Shown here: one piece after another, positions 9,071 through 22,676 of the stretch
Layout of the letters: each line of letters starts with the position of its first letter
Position numbering within the stretch: position 1 is the first letter of the stretch
Assembly: GCA_041304325.1 (NCBI GenBank)
Contig: JBFYNP010000071.1
Location: 6,444 to 70,443 of the forward strand
Origin: Candidatus Bathyarchaeota archaeon
GTDB lineage: Archaea; Thermoproteota; Bathyarchaeia; TCS64
Reading direction: 5' to 3'
DNA: 64,000 nucleotides
Notes under the pieces: generated by a model
Databases searched by the model: none
Told to the model about the DNA's origin: nothing
Seen by the model: the letters and a program-made list of their open reading frames with translations, nothing else
Position numbers and translations under genes: made by a program

Positions 9071-10243
9071 TTGCCCTTCTTCGAAGAGCCATTACCTCTT
9101 GAACTTATTAAGAAACACGCCCCAGCCAAATGGGCAGCCCTATCTGAAGGAGTAATCCCTCTCTTCGCCGCCGATCCTGACTTCAGAGTCGCCCCCGAGA
9201 TTCAGGAAGCCGTATCCGCAGCTGGCCATGATGGAGTCTTCAGTTATGGGGAGTCATACGGAAACCGCGCATTCAGAGAGGTTATCGCCGATACAGTGAG
9301 GACACGAAAGAAGATCCATTGCCACCCAGACGATGTGATGGTGACGAACGGCGTTGCTCAAGCGATGATGCTTGTTGCCCGCTACGCTTGCAAACCCGGA
9401 GATGAAGCTATTCTCTTTGACCCTGTAGACTTTCTCTTCGGGCGAGCCATAGATGAATCAGGTGCCAAGCGAATCTATAGCCAAATCGATAAAGAGTATC
9501 AAGAACTAGACATAGAAGGACTTATGGAACTCATCACTCCAAAAACCCGGCTTCTCTGCGTCTGTAACCCTCATAATCCTCTTGGTCGAGTGCTCCGCAG
9601 AGATGAGTTAAGAGCTCTCGCCGAAATTGCTGTTGACAACAACCTCATAGTAATGTGTGACGAGATTTGGAGCGACATCGTCTACGATAAGCGTGAGTTT
9701 GTAAGCCTCGCGACTCTCAACCACGAGATTGCGGCTAGAACGATAACCCTTCACGGATTCTCAAAGACTTTTGGCCTAGCTGGTCTTAATCTCGGTTATG
9801 CAGTCGCGACAAACCCTGAGGTTATGCAGGGCCTCAAGAAGGCAACGCCCGGATTCTTTTACCCACTAAACGGCGTCTCTCAAGCAGCAGGATTAGCGGC
9901 ATACACTAAGGCATGGTACTGGGCTGACGCTTTTCTCTCACATCTTCAAGAGATTCGAGACTACGCATACTCAAGGCTCACAGAGATCCCTGGAGTGATA
10001 TGCCAAAAACCTGAGGGGACATACGTCCTCTTCCCAGACATCTCATCCTTCGGCAGAACCAGCGAAGAGATGACGCGCTACCTCCGGAAAGAGGGAAAGG
10101 TGGGCGTGGTTCCAGGTCACGGTCGAGATTTCAGCTACTTTGGCCCAAGCGCCGAAGGTAACATCAGAATAGTTTTCTCGACAACGAAAACCAACATCAC
10201 CGAAGCCTTAGACAGAATCGAGAAAGCATTAAACAAGCTATGA
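9071..10243 (+). CDS. Class I/II PLP-dependent aminotransferase (MalY/PatB-like subgroup possible)
   Basis: Motifs are CNPHNPLGRV, MCDEIWSD and the PLP-lysine region HGFSKTFGLAGLNLGY. The start is TTG as called and the true start is uncertain. Confidence 0.8.
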   Translation: MPFFEEPLPLELIKKHAPAKWAALSEGVIPLFAADPDFRVAPEIQEAVSAAGHDGVFSYGESYGNRAFREVIADTVRTRKKIHCHPDDVMVTNGVAQAMMLVARYACKPGDEAILFDPVDFLFGRAIDESGAKRIYSQIDKEYQELDIEGLMELITPKTRLLCVCNPHNPLGRVLRRDELRALAEIAVDNNLIVMCDEIWSDIVYDKREFVSLATLNHEIAARTITLHGFSKTFGLAGLNLGYAVATNPEVMQGLKKATPGFFYPLNGVSQAAGLAAYTKAWYWADAFLSHLQEIRDYAYSRLTEIPGVICQKPEGTYVLFPDISSFGRTSEEMTRYLRKEGKVGVVPGHGRDFSYFGPSAEGNIRIVFSTTKTNITEALDRIEKALNKL

Positions 10244-16334: not shown

Positions 16335-16838
16335 ATGACTGAATCCATCGATAAACTCATGGCTGCCTTCGCCGGCGAGAGTCAGGCGAACCGAACATAC
16401 CTAGCCTTCGCAAAAAAAGCGGACGAGGAGGAACTACATCAAGTCGCGAAACTATTCCGCGCTGCAGCAGAGGCTGAGACGGTTCACGCCCTTAATCACC
16501 TCCGAATAGCGGGGAAGATCGGTATGACAGTCTCTAACCTTGATGAAGCTATCAATGGTGAGACATACGAGTTCAAGCAGATGTACCCCAGCTTCATCGA
16601 GGTTGCGAAAAAGGAGAAGAATAAGCAAGCTGAATGGAGCTTCGACATCGCGAACAAAGTCGAAGAAATCCATGCAGGACTCTACAGGATAGCACTAGAG
16701 GCGGTGAAATCTGGTAAAGAAGTGCCGAAAGTCGATTATTACGTCTGTAAGGTCTGTGGTAACACTGTGGAGAAAACAGCACCTGATAAATGCTCTATCT
16801 GCGGTGCACCGAAGACACAGTTCATAAAGATCGAGTAA
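16335..16838 (+). CDS. rbr: Rubrerythrin
   Basis: Diiron four-helix-bundle motifs GESQANRTYLAFA, EAETVHALNH and EEIHAGLY. The C-terminal rubredoxin-like domain is CKVCGN...CSICGAP. Confidence 0.85.
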   Translation: MTESIDKLMAAFAGESQANRTYLAFAKKADEEELHQVAKLFRAAAEAETVHALNHLRIAGKIGMTVSNLDEAINGETYEFKQMYPSFIEVAKKEKNKQAEWSFDIANKVEEIHAGLYRIALEAVKSGKEVPKVDYYVCKVCGNTVEKTAPDKCSICGAPKTQFIKIE

Positions 16839-16861: not shown

Positions 16862-18124
16862 CTAGAACTGTCCTTTTAGTAGGTCCTGAAGGCTCTCCTT
16901 TTCTCGAACTAGTCTCGTAAAACCGTCTTTTACTATGACTTCAGCTGGGCGAAGCCTAGAATTATATTGACTACTCATTGAGAAACCGTAAGCCCCCGCG
17001 TTCAGAATGGCAAGAAGCGCTCCCTCAGATACACGTGGAAGCACCCTATTTCTCGCAAATAAGTCTCCAGTTTCGCATAGAGGGCCATAGATATCGTAAT
17101 TCTCTGGGGGAGTGTTGAGTGTGCTAGCTGAGACTATGGGATGATAAGACCCGTACATGGCTGGGCGTATTAGAGTGTTGAATCCCGCATCGACGCCAAG
17201 ATAACTTCTATCGGGAGTCTTCTTCAGCGTCGTAACCCGTGTTAGGAGGATACCGGACTCGGCGACGAGGTATCGTCCCGGCTCTAACCAGATCTCGGGC
17301 TCGCCTAAGTTGTGGGTATGCAGCTGCTCCTTTGTGTAATTTATGAGGCGTTGAACGAAGATGTCGAGATCGACAGCCTTCTCCTCAGGGCGGTAAGGGA
17401 CTCCTATTCCTCCTCCGAAGTCGATAAAGTCAAAGTCAATGCCAGCTTCGTCGTGGGTGTGCTTCGCTACTTCTATGAGTCTCTTAACGGGGCGAAGGTA
17501 GTTTTCAACATCGAGGACTCCAGAACCTATATGCATCTGGATCCCGAAACGTTTTACTCCCGCATGCTTTGCCTTTTTGAAGACTTTAACTGCATCTGTA
17601 TCCCATAGACCGAACTTGGCGTCAGGGCCAGCTGTGATTACGTGTTCGTGGTGCCCTGCCCCAATCTCAGGATTAACACGTACAGATACCATCTCAGGTA
17701 CCTCGATCCCGATGAGCCTGTCGAGTTGAGACTCTGAATCCAGGTTAATTCTTACACCTTTCTCGAGGATAAAGAGCAGCTCTTCATAGCCTACGCTTGT
17801 TCCTGTGAAAAGGATCTGCTCTGGCTTGAAGCCTGCCTCGAGAGCGAGAAAGACCTCTCCAGGGCTTACAGTATCAAGCCCCGCTCCTTCTTCAAGGAGG
17901 AGCCTAAGCACACTTAGGTTCGTGTTCGCTTTCGCTGCATACAGTATTCTATTCCTAGGGTAGTATAGGTTAAGCGCTTTTTTGAGTTCGCGGTATCGAC
18001 GCTTAATCATGTTCTCGCTGTAGACGTAAAGGGGTGTGCCGTAAAGCCTGGCAAGCTCCAGAGAGGAAACGCCATCGATGAATAAAAAGCCGTCACGGTT
18101 ATCGAGAGGCCAGCCTAGAGCCAT
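16862..18124 (-). CDS. lysA: Diaminopimelate decarboxylase (Orn/DAP/Arg decarboxylase family 2)
   Basis: The PLP lysine region is LYAAKANTNLSVL. Other motifs are DTVSPGEV, FGGGIGVPY, EPGRYLVA and YGPLCETGD. Confidence 0.75.
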   Translation of the reverse strand: MALGWPLDNRDGFLFIDGVSSLELARLYGTPLYVYSENMIKRRYRELKKALNLYYPRNRILYAAKANTNLSVLRLLLEEGAGLDTVSPGEVFLALEAGFKPEQILFTGTSVGYEELLFILEKGVRINLDSESQLDRLIGIEVPEMVSVRVNPEIGAGHHEHVITAGPDAKFGLWDTDAVKVFKKAKHAGVKRFGIQMHIGSGVLDVENYLRPVKRLIEVAKHTHDEAGIDFDFIDFGGGIGVPYRPEEKAVDLDIFVQRLINYTKEQLHTHNLGEPEIWLEPGRYLVAESGILLTRVTTLKKTPDRSYLGVDAGFNTLIRPAMYGSYHPIVSASTLNTPPENYDIYGPLCETGDLFARNRVLPRVSEGALLAILNAGAYGFSMSSQYNSRLRPAEVIVKDGFTRLVREKESLQDLLKGQF

Positions 18125-18158
18125 AAGGAATATTCCAGTTTATCGATTATAAAAAAGG

Positions 18159-19418
18159 TTACCGGATCAATGTTCCAAGAACATCAAACTGCATCTCCTT
18201 GGGCTCACTTTCAATATGGATCAGCGCAGCTAGCTCGGGGCTCCCGTGAACCTCCTCTAAGAGACTGCAACTTATCCACAGGTGATCGAGCTCCATGGTG
18301 TTCTTGATCCTGACGACACGGGCTTTTTCTCCATCTATTGGGCCAAGTATGCGGAGAGCTGTTGTTATTGCATCTCTATCATTCGGTAACCAGATCGGCG
18401 TTTTCCCTGTGTCGCATGATCCCTGGGTTAAACAGTTGACGAACGTTGATTCATAATTTATCTTGTCGACGAGGCGACGAGTAGTAAGGTCAGCTAGACC
18501 GATTCCAATGGCGTTTCCCTCAGTTTCGTGTGTTAGGTCAAGGACGACAATCTTATCGATCCTCGGTGAATTGGGATCCGACTCTCCAGGCATCCAGAAC
18601 CGCCCCGTAACGTTTGTATCCATCCCAACTCCACTGATGTTCTTCCCAATCTCCTCAACGATGAGGAGATCTATCTCTTTGAAAGGTATTCTAGCAAGGA
18701 GTGTCTTAGCCTCTTCGAGGAGTTTCAGTTCAGCTGCCTCAATTTCGTAAAGCTCCAGAGCCATGATCTTTGAAGTCTCGTGATGCGCGTTCTCCAGGAG
18801 GGCTAACCCCATGATTATCCGGCATTTCTCCATTATGAGTCGAGCAGCCGCGGGGAGGAGGTTATGGTAACCTTCGTAGAGGTTATGGTGGATCATCTCG
18901 GCTCCCTTCTGCTTACCGAGACCTATGGCAATCATCTTCATAACACCGCTCTCGATTATTCCCTTGAAATCGGTGTGTGGCTTTACACGGCCAACGACGA
19001 TGATTCCATCCGCGTTGAATGCGTTTCTATCAACGTATACCGGAGTTCCTCTTATACTCCCGATCTCCTCAACCTCCATCGAGCTTACTATACGGCAGCC
19101 CATAGACTCCTCTGTGATCCCGAGGCTCCTTAGCGTCTCAACTTGACCGTGAGCAGTTGCGCCTCCGTGGCTTCCCATCGCCGGAATGATGAAAGGCTTA
19201 GCGTCAGCGGCTTTCACCTCCTCCACAACAGCACGAAGTATCTCAGGGATGTTCGTGATACCTCGGCTCCCCGCAGTAATAGCTATCCTCTGGCCCTTCA
19301 GTATCTTATCCCCCAGTTTTTTCCGTCTTAACTCCTTGTGGACTTCTCCAATAGGGTCCTCCAGCCTAGGCTGTATAATCACCTGTTTCACTTCAACCAT
19401 CTTAGGTAGACTCATCAA
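18159..19418 (-). CDS. LarA-like N-terminal domain (DUF2088-type) protein, function unknown
   Basis: The stretches IAITAGSRGIT, IIPAMGSHGGAT and ADGIIVVGRVKPHTDFKG line up with LarA stretches IVIISSDHTRP, ILVATGFHRPST and ADLLISEGFIESHFFAG as I recall them. It overlaps the upstream gene by 4 nt. Confidence 0.45.
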   Translation of the reverse strand: MMSLPKMVEVKQVIIQPRLEDPIGEVHKELRRKKLGDKILKGQRIAITAGSRGITNIPEILRAVVEEVKAADAKPFIIPAMGSHGGATAHGQVETLRSLGITEESMGCRIVSSMEVEEIGSIRGTPVYVDRNAFNADGIIVVGRVKPHTDFKGIIESGVMKMIAIGLGKQKGAEMIHHNLYEGYHNLLPAAARLIMEKCRIIMGLALLENAHHETSKIMALELYEIEAAELKLLEEAKTLLARIPFKEIDLLIVEEIGKNISGVGMDTNVTGRFWMPGESDPNSPRIDKIVVLDLTHETEGNAIGIGLADLTTRRLVDKINYESTFVNCLTQGSCDTGKTPIWLPNDRDAITTALRILGPIDGEKARVVRIKNTMELDHLWISCSLLEEVHGSPELAALIHIESEPKEMQFDVLGTLIR

Positions 19419-20437
19419 TTACTCCTCCTCTCAGCCATCTTCGCCGCTAACTTTATTGCGTCAATGAGGCTCTGCGGGTTTGCTGTTCCCTCGCGTCGCC
19501 CTGCCTTACCGTATGCAGTACCGTGGTCAACGCTCGTCCGTATGAATGGGAGACCAAGAGTGACATTGATGCCACCCATCTCCTCCCATCCAGTCAATCC
19601 ATACTTGAAACCCAATAGCTTGACAGGGATATGACCTTGATCATGATACATCGCAATAGCCACATCGAATGCTCCACCAGAAGCTTTACCAAAGACCGTA
19701 TCAGGCGGGATAGGGCCCTCAACAGTCAATCCCAGTTCCCTCGCCTCCTCAATAGCTGGGACTATCTCATCAATCTCCTCTCTTCCAAAGAGACCACCTT
19801 CCCCCGAGTGAGGGTTAAGCCCAGCTACAGCTATGCGAGGCTTATCTATACCCAGGCTTATGAGAGCTTCATTAGCGATCCTGATCTTGCTGAGCACCAA
19901 TTCCTTTGTGATAAGATCAGGGACCTTCCTTAGAGGTACATGCGTTGTGACGTGGATGACTCTAAAATCTCCTGAAACGAGCATCATCGTAGACTCTTTT
20001 ACTCCTGCAAGTTCAGCAAGAAGCTCCGTATGTCCAGGATAATTATAGCCAGCCATATGCATAGCCTCCTTGCTCAACGGCGCGGTTACTATCCCCTCAA
20101 CCTTGCCTTTCAACGCGAGATTTGCAGCCTTAATAACGTATTCAACCGAGGCTTTACCTCCTATCGCTTGAGATTTACCCATAACAAGATTATCAAAGTC
20201 GATGTTCCTAAGATCAACTAACTCGGAGATCCCACAGGGAGTTGTGATCCTTGATAGTGATTTGTCAATTTCGACTTTGACTTTAGCGACCTCAGCACCC
20301 ATCATTAGAATGGATGAGTCACCGACGATAACTGGATGACATACCGTATAGATTTCATTACTTGATAACGCCTTCGCCACAATTTCGGGACCTATCCCAG
20401 CAGGATCACCCATGGTGATCGCGAGGAGAGGTTTCAA
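19415..20437 (-). CDS. pdxA: PdxA-family NAD-dependent 4-phospho-hydroxyacid dehydrogenase (PdxA2-like, decarboxylating)
   Basis: Motifs are AITMGDPAGIGPEI, YPGHTELLA, GLNPHSGEGG, MYHDQGHIP and SVDHGTAYGKAG. Confidence 0.8.
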   Translation of the reverse strand: MKPLLAITMGDPAGIGPEIVAKALSSNEIYTVCHPVIVGDSSILMMGAEVAKVKVEIDKSLSRITTPCGISELVDLRNIDFDNLVMGKSQAIGGKASVEYVIKAANLALKGKVEGIVTAPLSKEAMHMAGYNYPGHTELLAELAGVKESTMMLVSGDFRVIHVTTHVPLRKVPDLITKELVLSKIRIANEALISLGIDKPRIAVAGLNPHSGEGGLFGREEIDEIVPAIEEARELGLTVEGPIPPDTVFGKASGGAFDVAIAMYHDQGHIPVKLLGFKYGLTGWEEMGGINVTLGLPFIRTSVDHGTAYGKAGRREGTANPQSLIDAIKLAAKMAERRSN

Positions 20438-21723
20438 AGGTCTCTCCTCCTGAGATATTGAGCCGCTTGAACGAGGCTGTTCTCCACACCGAACCCACCG
20501 GCTTTAGTGACAGCTAAGATTCCATTACTCAACAAAACAAGAGGCATCCCCGGCTCAACTTCAGCGACTATCTTTGCTGATCCTACACCCAGCTTTTCAC
20601 AGACATGTAGACTCGTAGCTCCTCCAGTCAGGAGAAGCCCTTTCACCTCAACTTGTTTTAAAATCTCTGACGTGATTCTGCCGAAAGCCTCCCCGACGAT
20701 ATATCGAACATCATCCGGGTTGACACTATTATTTTCTGTATAAAGCATGAACTCTCCTCGACTAGATTCTCGAGGAGATACAGTGAGGGAGACGTCAACA
20801 CCACCGCGTAAAAATTTCACAGCTTCACCTACACAACGCTCAACCTCATTTTCCACAGCAATTCCACCCTGAATTAAGTGATTAACGTTGATCTGGGTCT
20901 CCATGAATCCCAGGCGCTCAACAAGGTTAGTTACCTGAACTCTAGAAAGGTGACGTGTGCTTCCGCAAACACTGATTAAGGGCTTACATTTGCTCATACC
21001 GATGCCTGCAGGCAGCTCAGATGCAAGGCCTGCAGATCCGACAACGAGCTGAGCTTCATCAGCTGTCTGAGCGATATCCCTCAAATGTTTTTCAGTTAAG
21101 GCGTCGAATACAGCGATCTCTACACCTTGAGACTTAAATTTACTTAATTTTTCTCGTATCACATTTGGCCCAAGCCTAACGTCGCCGATACCAATAAGGC
21201 CAACTCTCCGGGAACATTGATGACTTATAATCGTCGTAACATCTGATGTCTTTATAGATAACTCGTTAGCGTACTCTGTATTCTCAAGTAAGATATTATT
21301 TACCAACTGTTTTCCAGCGAGAGTCATACGTCCATATGTGGGATAAGAGGGGGCGAAAAAAGTCATATCAGCACCGACCGCAGATATTGCAGCCTCGAGC
21401 TCAACACCAATATTCCCCCTGAGCGTTGAATCAATCTTTTTATAAAATTTCTCTACACCAAAGGTCTTCAGCGTGGCAATGGCAGCTGTAACTCGTTTAT
21501 ACGCTTCACCCCGACTACATTCACGGCTCTCAGTATCAAAAACCAACACGTCGGCATCCCCAACATAATGGTCATCACCTTTCAGGAGCACCTCGACTTG
21601 CAAACCCCAATTACTAAACTGTACACCCGTATCAAAGGCGCCCGTAAGATCGTCAGCTAAGACACCCAGCCGCAACAATACACCGATTAAATCGATCCGA
21701 TAGATATTGAAAACATCTTGCAA
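20434..21723 (-). CDS. Four-carbon acid sugar kinase family protein (DUF1537; DtnK/DenK/OtnK-like)
   Basis: The N-terminal GVLADDLTGAFDTGVQF motif is characteristic of DUF1537 kinases. The C-terminal nucleotide-binding region is LLLTGGATS...TKAGGFG. There is a 4-nt overlap with the PdxA-family gene. Confidence 0.75.
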   Translation of the reverse strand: MQDVFNIYRIDLIGVLLRLGVLADDLTGAFDTGVQFSNWGLQVEVLLKGDDHYVGDADVLVFDTESRECSRGEAYKRVTAAIATLKTFGVEKFYKKIDSTLRGNIGVELEAAISAVGADMTFFAPSYPTYGRMTLAGKQLVNNILLENTEYANELSIKTSDVTTIISHQCSRRVGLIGIGDVRLGPNVIREKLSKFKSQGVEIAVFDALTEKHLRDIAQTADEAQLVVGSAGLASELPAGIGMSKCKPLISVCGSTRHLSRVQVTNLVERLGFMETQINVNHLIQGGIAVENEVERCVGEAVKFLRGGVDVSLTVSPRESSRGEFMLYTENNSVNPDDVRYIVGEAFGRITSEILKQVEVKGLLLTGGATSLHVCEKLGVGSAKIVAEVEPGMPLVLLSNGILAVTKAGGFGVENSLVQAAQYLRRRDL

Positions 21724-21775
21724 AGAATATCAAGATCGACTAAGCTTTAAACGGGATAAGTGACTACCATTTCTC

Positions 21776-22165
21776 ATGAAATTTAACTCAAAGATCGTTG
21801 AAGCCTGGGTTCAATTTTGGAATACTTACGATCTCTTGAAGATTGATGAACTCTTCATGACCGATGATCACGTCACCTACTTCAGCTCGGAAAAGGAGGG
21901 TTTAATCAAAGGGATCGAGGCTCTCAAAAGACACCATGAAGGATTTGGTTTTGTTAAAGGTGGAAAGTCTCAGCCTAACAAGCTCTGGCTAGAAGAAACT
22001 TATATCGACGACTTTGGAAAAACCACTTTGGTCTGCGCTATCTGGTGCTTCAAACGACCCAACCTAGAGAAGCCGCAAAGAGGTCCAGTTACCATCATCT
22101 ACATGGAAACGATTAATGGTTGGCGTATAGCTCACGCGAACTTCGGTAATTACAAAACTAGTTGA
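21776..22165 (+). CDS. NTF2-like (SnoaL/DUF4440-type) small protein
   Basis: 129 aa. The N-terminal helix IVEAWVQFWNTYDL and the C-terminal GWRIAHANF pattern are typical of the NTF2-like fold. Confidence 0.45.
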   Translation: MKFNSKIVEAWVQFWNTYDLLKIDELFMTDDHVTYFSSEKEGLIKGIEALKRHHEGFGFVKGGKSQPNKLWLEETYIDDFGKTTLVCAIWCFKRPNLEKPQRGPVTIIYMETINGWRIAHANFGNYKTS

Positions 22166-22304: not shown

Positions 22305-22676
22305 TTAATTAAGAGCCTTATTTATTTCCATAACTATATCGTCTGGTGAGACAGGCTTCAATAAAATAGCTGAGTATTTTGCACCTCTATCTGACATCGT
22401 ATCCATTGTCTTGCTGAAACCTGAAAGTAGAATGATCTTTGTTTTCGGGTACATCACCTGGATATCAGCAGCCAGATCGTCTCCCTTCACGTCAGGAAGC
22501 ACATAATCGAGTAAGATAAGATCATACTGCTTTATCTTGAGTTTGCGAAGCGCCTCCGCTCCAGTGAGGGCCGTATCCGAGTTGAACCCTGCGTCCTCAA
22601 GAATTATACCCAATATCTGCGTGTTGGCCTCGTCATCATCAACCAGCAGTAGGGTTTTACTCATGACTAGAATCAC
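22305..22676 (-). CDS. Stand-alone response-regulator receiver (CheY-like) protein
   Basis: The acidic pocket is LLLVDDD, the phospho-acceptor region is DLILLDYVLPD, and the conserved S/T and K are LLSGF and LLKPV. There is no output domain. Confidence 0.8.
   Translation of the reverse strand: MILVMSKTLLLVDDDEANTQILGIILEDAGFNSDTALTGAEALRKLKIKQYDLILLDYVLPDVKGDDLAADIQVMYPKTKIILLSGFSKTMDTMSDRGAKYSAILLKPVSPDDIVMEINKALN

Follow-up and report, generated by a model that had tools for sequence, protein, structure and literature searches.

A translationally coupled kinase, PdxA2-type dehydrogenase and LarA group 22 gene in Bathyarchaeia: a candidate module for tetronate use

INTRODUCTION

Could an archaeon use a LarA-type 2-hydroxyacid epimerase to bring four-carbon acid sugars into a kinase/dehydrogenase pathway? 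The question is raised by a stretch of 64,000 nt (hereafter the window) from a Candidatus Bathyarchaeota archaeon (GenBank assembly GCA_041304325.1, contig JBFYNP010000071.1), in which genes for a DUF1537 kinase, a PdxA2-type dehydrogenase and a LarA-superfamily protein follow one another on the minus strand, with lysA next in line. The assembly spans 2.14 Mb in 136 contigs and is 88.8% complete, and the window lies on its contig C71. The labels carried by the closest database proteins also point to Bathyarchaeia. An earlier note on this DNA had described the four genes as an overlapping operon and suggested that the third protein interconverts D-erythronate and D-threonate or their phosphates. 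The four co-directional open reading frames (ORFs) that it gave match ours exactly in strand and coordinates, and its 34-nt gap before lysA reads as described. The features are as follows.

20434-21723, minus strand: DUF1537 four-carbon acid-sugar kinase (P0001), with SBD_N and NBD_C domains; the coordinates are those of the longest ORF
19415-20437, minus strand: PdxA2-type NAD-dependent decarboxylating dehydrogenase (P0002), matching PF04166 and TIGR00557; TTG start
18159-19418, minus strand: LarA-superfamily group 22 protein (P0003), matching NF052515; predicted nickel-pincer 2-hydroxyacid epimerase
18125-18158, minus strand: 34-nt spacer from the group 22 gene to lysA, read from the sequence
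16862-18124, minus strand: lysA, diaminopimelate decarboxylase (P0004), matching TIGR01048

DtnK and DenK are DUF1537 tetronate kinases for D-threonate and D-erythronate, respectively (Zhang 2016, as cited in PMC10971088). LarA homologues that have been characterised work on C2 of 2-hydroxy acids, 4-deoxy-threonate/erythronate among them (PMC11770544). In the searchable literature we found no paper that joins DUF1537 or PdxA2 with LarA. Our reading of the locus, to which we give a probability of roughly 0.5, is that the first three genes (the trio) constitute one translationally coupled unit for the use of tetronates, the four-carbon aldonic acids, which would yield dihydroxyacetone phosphate (DHAP) by the successive action of an epimerase, a kinase and a dehydrogenase.

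RESULTS

The third protein belongs to group 22 of the LarA superfamily

Pfam matched P0003 weakly and almost equally to Lar_N (31.6 bits) and DUF362 (32 bits). The protein scored 531.8 bits, over the cut-off of 400, against NF052515, "nickel pincer cofactor-dependent isomerase, group 22". Its identity to solved LarA proteins is about 15%; a sequence search against solved structures returned only a marginal match to Mar2 (E 0.16), and the family profile gave chance matches only. Because sequence searches barely connect P0003 to LarA, the link requires comparison of folds and of profiles. An AlphaFold2 model calculated with 43 diverse homologues reached a pLDDT of 94, and the best 19 PDB matches found with it by Foldseek were all LarA-family proteins (E 3e-13 to 5e-7), over alignments of 264-450 columns that in several cases were nearly, and at most fully, full length. 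As modelled, P0003 is a full-length two-domain LarA fold. An hhalign comparison with canonical Bathyarchaeia LarA homologues gave a probability of 95.8% (E 8e-9, 356 columns). The family score, the model and the profile comparison thus agree with the LarA resemblance first noticed from the sequence.

Catalytic and cofactor-binding residues were mapped through a canonical homologue of the same genome (P0275) and a HMMER alignment to L. plantarum LarA (6c1w/5huq numbering). The earlier note had proposed a check for the equivalents of His108, His174 and Lys184, and all three are kept: the catalytic His108 and His174 have their counterparts in H84 and H148, and the cofactor-tethering Lys184 has its counterpart in K161 in the hhalign alignment. 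In addition, H177 approximately matches the nickel-binding His200, lying 16 residues past K161 with the same spacing as in LarA, although hhalign places it two columns off. None of H84, H148, K161 and H177 varies among 43 diverse group 22 members or among the 120 nearest homologues, mostly from Bathyarchaeia-type metagenomes, in which R52 is likewise invariant.

Group 22 has already been catalogued, with its function listed as unknown (Desguin 2020, Sci Rep, PMC7583248; NCBIfam NF052515), and comprises more than 1000 clusters at 50% identity. Its published signature is R, H, H, T, D, K and H at LarA R75, H108, H174, F175, F176, K184 and H200 (Desguin 2020, PMC7583248). The residues of P0003 agree with the group 22 table of that study (Dataset/Table S3), and the N-termini of the members match too. 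Because the score, signature and N-termini all fit, P0003 is a member of this catalogued, uncharacterised LarA clade.

The trio recurs in distant genomes

The kinase, PdxA and group 22 genes stand together at eight of ten loci of the same genus, the window's own included. The trio was also found on three distant Bathyarchaeia contigs (L009, L010 and L031), at 62-76% identity and with different flanks. Judged by coordinates, about 25 genomes of this Bathyarchaeia family have a kinase gene at a distance of 2.2-2.9 kb from group 22. Among the Bacillota (Bacillaceae and Paenibacillaceae), five loci have the full trio (L046, L056, L059, L078 and L079) and one has the kinase only (L075); the hosts of the bacterial trios are Brevibacillus, Neobacillus, Alkalihalobacillus, Fredinandcohnia and one further Bacillaceae genome. 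An Ammoniphilus locus places the kinase beside group 22 with no PdxA match, and tblastn located all three genes at one locus of a Rubrobacterales metagenome-assembled genome (MAG).

A tree of 83 group 22 proteins placed the four trio genes of archaea together (SH-aLRT 87) within a strongly supported archaeal clade of nine, and the Bacillota trio genes in a separate well-supported clade. Three rows with very long branches (L050, L108 and L109), probably wrong ORF picks, were excluded from the residue comparison described below, and the Rubrobacterales row, unreliable with its very long branch, was excluded from later comparisons.

A class-wide sample of 301 Bathyarchaeia genomes, each at least 80% complete, contained DUF1537 in 61, so the kinase is no rarity in this class, where the earlier note had regarded its pairing with PdxA2 as uncommon for an archaeon. 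Group 22 was also present in 40 of these 61 genomes, with about 13 expected by chance; because the genomes are kin, this co-occurrence is not an independent test. The trio recurs in both Archaea and Bacillota, and a functional link is therefore likely, the kinase, PdxA and group 22 genes forming a real module.

Two side observations concern the group 22 genes themselves. The archaeal members (Bathyarchaeia, Methanomethylicia and Nitrososphaeria), among them the window gene and those of L012, L032, L033, L034 and L036, form one strongly supported clade amid Bacillota and Chloroflexota, a placement that would fit a single old inter-domain transfer. In two genomes of the same genus, the gene is in two adjacent pieces (G012:C6:108757-109924 and G002:C10:28295-29342), reflecting either a frameshift or an assembly error.

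The kinase is paired with a PdxA2-type dehydrogenase

The assignments of the first two genes from the sequence were borne out by profile searches. P0001 has the complete DUF1537 domain pair in Pfam (SBD_N, 189.6 bits; NBD_C, 87.2 bits), and its closest solved structure is 4xfm (122 bits). P0002 contains a full-length PdxA domain (PF04166, 355 bits) and scored 359.8 bits against TIGR00557, over the cut-off of 290. Its PDB matches 4jqp, 2hi1 (PdxA2) and 6e85 (D-threonate 4-phosphate dehydrogenase) scored 260-285 bits, compared with 190 for Escherichia coli PdxA. By these scores, E. coli PdxA stands further from P0002 than do the structures of PdxA2 and D-threonate-4-phosphate dehydrogenase.

These matches bear on a different role for the pair, in which it would recycle 4-hydroxy-L-threonine or 4-phosphoerythronate for metabolite repair or as a vitamin B6 feed rather than for catabolism. 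A DUF1537 kinase has been described as phosphorylating toxic 4-hydroxythreonine (Thiaville 2016, as cited in PMC10971088). The score of P0002 over the TIGR00557 PdxA cut-off would suit such a role, but P0002 is nearer to PdxA2 than to PdxA1, and a 2-hydroxyacid epimerase has no place in the scheme. Archaea usually make pyridoxal 5'-phosphate by PdxS/PdxT, which also counts against a B6 or repair function. We consider that function very improbable.

Gene starts indicate translational coupling within the trio

The kinase stop codon and the TTG that starts PdxA share the sequence TTGA at 20434-20437, confirming the first of two 4-nt overlaps claimed earlier. The second (19415-19418) depends on where the group 22 gene begins: the PdxA stop TGA overlaps it by 4 nt if the start is TTG at 19418 and by 1 nt (TGATG) if the start is ATG at 19415. 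The ATG is the more likely start, giving a 1-nt overlap, and the recorded P0003 protein of 418 aa begins there. GGAGG-like boxes lie shortly 5' of both the PdxA and the group 22 starts. For the kinase, a start at 21723 is less likely. Because the domain begins at residue 19 of the longest ORF and homologues are 407-416 aa long, the probable start of translation is a TTG, either at 21678 or at 21675.

Cofactor synthesis genes were not found in this lineage

The literature takes LarA homologues to be strictly dependent on a cofactor made by LarB, LarE and LarC. The earlier note had seen no larB, larC or larE in the window, and hidden Markov model searches together with tblastn using Bathyarchaeial LarB, LarC and LarE queries found none there or in the whole assembly. 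Neither TIGR00299 nor PF01969 (Ni_insertion) detected a LarC in this genome, its sole AIRC-domain gene encodes a 148-aa PurE, and the LarE search gave weak PP-loop matches only. No LarB, LarC or LarE was found in any of the 24 sampled genomes of the family, nor in the two neighbouring families sampled. In eight genomes of other Bathyarchaeia families, LarB and LarE were detected at 230-312 bits, and LarC in seven of them at 127-171 bits. The LarBCE-negative genomes include a single-contig genome of 2.3 Mb, which has canonical LarA homologues and no group 22, and genomes of 6, 20 and 30 contigs; LarC and LarE protein queries confirmed the negatives in the near-closed genomes. A systematic assembly gap is an unlikely cause of the absence.

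Across the 301 Bathyarchaeia genomes, LarC was found in 110, group 22 in 65 and both in 10, so that 55 of the 65 group 22 carriers were without LarC. Outside this class, all 32 carriers had LarC, often adjoining group 22; the sole LarC-negative genome among the 33 tested was another Bathyarchaeia MAG, also with the trio. All bacterial trio genomes tested encode LarC. Because LarC accompanies group 22 in 32/32 carriers outside the class, in general group 22 appears to depend on the nickel pincer. In some loci, group 22 has UbiX- and UbiA-like neighbours; an alternative carboxylation route through these was considered and set aside, given LarC in all 32 genomes from outside the class. The cofactor-binding aldo-keto reductases reported in Nat Chem 2026 had no bearing on P0003. 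Two genomes of the same family but of another genus (G176 and G207; 2/52 sampled family genomes) carry the trio and LarC; with contamination of about 5% in each, the LarC contigs may be foreign, and otherwise the two are natural cases for comparison.

Group 22 is not the only LarA-type protein here. Each sampled family genome has two to six canonical Lar_N homologues, again without LarB, LarC or LarE. The homologue used for residue mapping, P0275 (contig C35:30509-31741; L001:1156-2388, minus strand; 410 aa), scored 149 bits to the malate racemase Mar2, and its DxTR, His, GGxK and His motifs are intact. Its neighbourhood on C35 includes a glycoside hydrolase family 1 (GH1) glycosidase, a metallo-beta-lactamase-fold hydrolase and a cupin, and nothing there resembles cofactor synthesis. 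Three further partial canonical homologues of this genome lie at contig ends (C126, C48 and C26). We put at about even the chance that the LarA-superfamily enzymes of a large share of the Bathyarchaeia, group 22 and the two to six canonical paralogues with intact cofactor residues alike, run without LarBCE, whether by an unknown route, by uptake of the cofactor or a precursor, or with a different cofactor.

The same negatives could mean that P0003 lacks the nickel-pincer cofactor in this lineage and has another cofactor or role, or that it is an inactive remnant carried with the kinase and PdxA. Failure to find LarBCE in this genome and in 24/24 family genomes, the lack of LarC in 55/65 class carriers, the spread of the negatives over single-contig and 6- to 30-contig genomes, and a genome in which PurE is the sole AIRC gene and no Ni_insertion domain was found all favour this explanation. 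However, all 120 nearest homologues keep R52, H84, H148, K161 and H177 unchanged, the group 22 reading frame is intact and coupled in translation, and several canonical LarA paralogues of the same genomes keep their motifs. Because residues, reading frame and coupling are kept, an inactive remnant is disfavoured, and we judge the explanation as a whole unlikely. The earlier note had named the loss of the catalytic and cofactor-tethering residues together with the absence of larBCE as telling against its LarA proposal; the residues are intact, and larBCE was not found.

lysA is a local neighbour outside the module

P0004 scored 445.7 bits against TIGR01048, over the cut-off of 297.9, in agreement with its naming as LysA. 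Its membership in the operon did not hold up. A single functional operon of all four genes, tying lysine synthesis to the acid-sugar genes, would accord with the shared strand and the gap of merely 34 nt, and of the nine other loci of this genus, four also have lysA 3' of group 22 and a fifth has a remnant match. However, lysA has no place beside the trio in L009, L010 and L031 or in any of the bacterial trios, and three same-genus loci with the trio lack it across about 1.4 kb of sequence downstream. We also see no biochemical link between lysA and the trio. Within the spacer are a run of six T residues (18156-18151) and, preceding the lysA ATG by about 26 nt, a TTTATAA box (18153-18147). Because this TATA-like box is at the usual archaeal TATA-to-start distance, lysA may have its own promoter, and the spacer could comprise a terminator followed by that promoter, giving a leaderless lysA message. 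We regard the four-gene operon as barely credible; lysA is a local neighbour outside the module. The earlier interpretation therefore stands in its family assignments and in the trio as a unit, and not in the membership of lysA.

The remaining features near the module are the following.

16335-16838, plus strand: rubrerythrin gene, just past lysA
21745-21751, minus strand: TTTAAAG box in the divergent intergenic region 5' of the kinase, read from the sequence
21776-22165, plus strand: SnoaL/DUF4440-like (NTF2-fold) gene, 129 aa, divergent from the kinase
22305-22676, minus strand: stand-alone response-regulator receiver protein, 123 aa, upstream of the SnoaL-like gene

In L009, a rubrerythrin gene (9304-9807) is convergent to group 22, and in the window it lies just beyond lysA; from these placements, lysA looks inserted between the two in this genus. 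On the other side of the module, the TTTAAAG box is located upstream of position 21723, about 25 nt away, and, to judge from its sequence, may be a promoter. The SnoaL-like gene had no Pfam match at E <= 0.001, and atlas features point to SnoaL_3/DUF4440 clusters with a score of 0.98. The gene in this position in L009 is 64% identical to it, and in two same-genus loci (G011 and G014) the SnoaL-like gene directly adjoins group 22. This conserved neighbour may be an accessory of the module.

DISCUSSION

In the pathway that we propose, the LarA-fold enzyme would epimerise a tetronate at C2, converting D-erythronate and D-threonate (or their 4-phosphates) into each other by transiently passing a hydride to a bound pincer cofactor. 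The DUF1537 kinase would then phosphorylate C4, and the PdxA2-type enzyme would oxidise and decarboxylate the 4-phospho acid to DHAP and CO2. PdxA2 reportedly converts 4-phospho acids to DHAP. With a C2 epimerase in the trio, one kinase/dehydrogenase pair could therefore use both C2 epimers. A C2 epimerase is the simplest reading because D-erythronate and D-threonate differ at C2 only and LarA homologues invert C2. This proposal starts from the genes and the way they are coupled, from the fold with its conserved catalytic and cofactor residues, and from a trio that recurs; the substrate, the order of the steps and the activity of P0003 are what we infer. A tetronate 2-epimerase would be chemically sensible, and it is the gene context that suggests it.

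Several observations weigh against this proposal. First, because searches of the genome and the family turned up no LarB, LarC or LarE, there is no known cofactor source for a nickel-pincer enzyme in this lineage. Second, neither partner reaches the cut-off of the tetronate family to which it is compared. The best NCBIfam match of P0001 is the D-threonate kinase DtnK, at 261 bits under a cut-off of 450, and its scores for the 3-oxo-tetronate kinase OtnK (152; cut-off 350) and OiaK (49; cut-off 700) are lower still, so that no NCBIfam kinase of known substrate matches it at equivalog level; P0002 scored 317 bits against the D-threonate-4-phosphate dehydrogenase family NF002891, under a cut-off of 583. 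Third, about 90% of group 22 genes are in other sugar-acid contexts, and two loci of the same genus (G011 and G014) have group 22 with no kinase or PdxA match within their 1.5-kb flanks. Fourth, no trio-specific residues common to the archaeal and bacterial clades were found; the comparison gave four weak columns only, none of which separates trio from non-trio archaeal members. Finally, group 22 is biochemically uncharacterised throughout.

Some of these observations would fit a module of the same make-up with another substrate or order of steps, in which the LarA-fold enzyme acts on a C5 or C6 aldonate, a deoxy acid or a phosphorylated intermediate only, and the kinase and PdxA process its product. 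The other contexts of group 22 include short-chain dehydrogenases/reductases (SDRs), tripartite ATP-independent periplasmic (TRAP) transporters, UxaC, altronate, dihydroxy-acid and sugar-acid dehydratases, FGGY kinases and also LarC, much as listed by Desguin 2020 (Table S1), and for most group 22 genes this company points to hexonate or uronate chemistry. The distance of the kinase from the DtnK cut-off and the lack of trio-specific residues are also in favour of another substrate. However, the structures nearest to P0002 are D-threonate-4-phosphate dehydrogenases. The characterised DUF1537-PdxA2 pairings known to us all act on four-carbon acids, which likewise counts against it. We consider another substrate or order of steps unlikely and retain the tetronate pathway as the preferred reading.

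The module varies a known kinase/PdxA2 pathway and is built around a catalogued enzyme clade. If the proposal is true, a LarA-type 2-epimerase placed before the kinase and PdxA2 would open a so far undescribed way into tetronate catabolism and would provide the first function for LarA group 22. What is new here, and the most interesting point of the analysis, is that LarBCE is missing across a lineage that keeps group 22 and canonical LarA genes. An archaeal lineage with many intact LarA-fold genes and no larBCE raises the question of whether there is another source of the nickel cofactor or another cofactor for the fold.

The locus can be compared with three groups of known enzymes. Like the DtnK/PdxA2 and DenK/PdxA2 pathways, as described by Zhang 2016 and cited in PMC10971088, it sets a DUF1537 kinase beside a PdxA2-type dehydrogenase, with DHAP as the expected product. 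Unlike them, it has a LarA-fold gene translationally coupled downstream and an archaeal host, both proteins score under the NCBIfam equivalog cut-offs, and there is no transporter gene inside the unit. Like LarA group 22 (PMC7583248; NF052515), P0003 exceeds the family cut-off, carries the same signature and occurs in a sugar-acid context. The published contexts of group 22 (PMC7583248) comprise SDR, dehydratase, TRAP, sugar kinase, UxaC and LarE genes and no PdxA or DUF1537, unlike the context here, and P0003 has a host genome in which no genes to make the nickel-pincer nucleotide (NPN) were found. With its low identity to solved LarA proteins, P0003 differs from these and from the D-gluconate 2-epimerases GntE1 and GntE2; what it would share with GntE1, GntE2 and other LarA homologues (PMC7583248, PMC11770544) is the C2 epimerisation of an aldonic acid by a LarA fold, as is predicted here.

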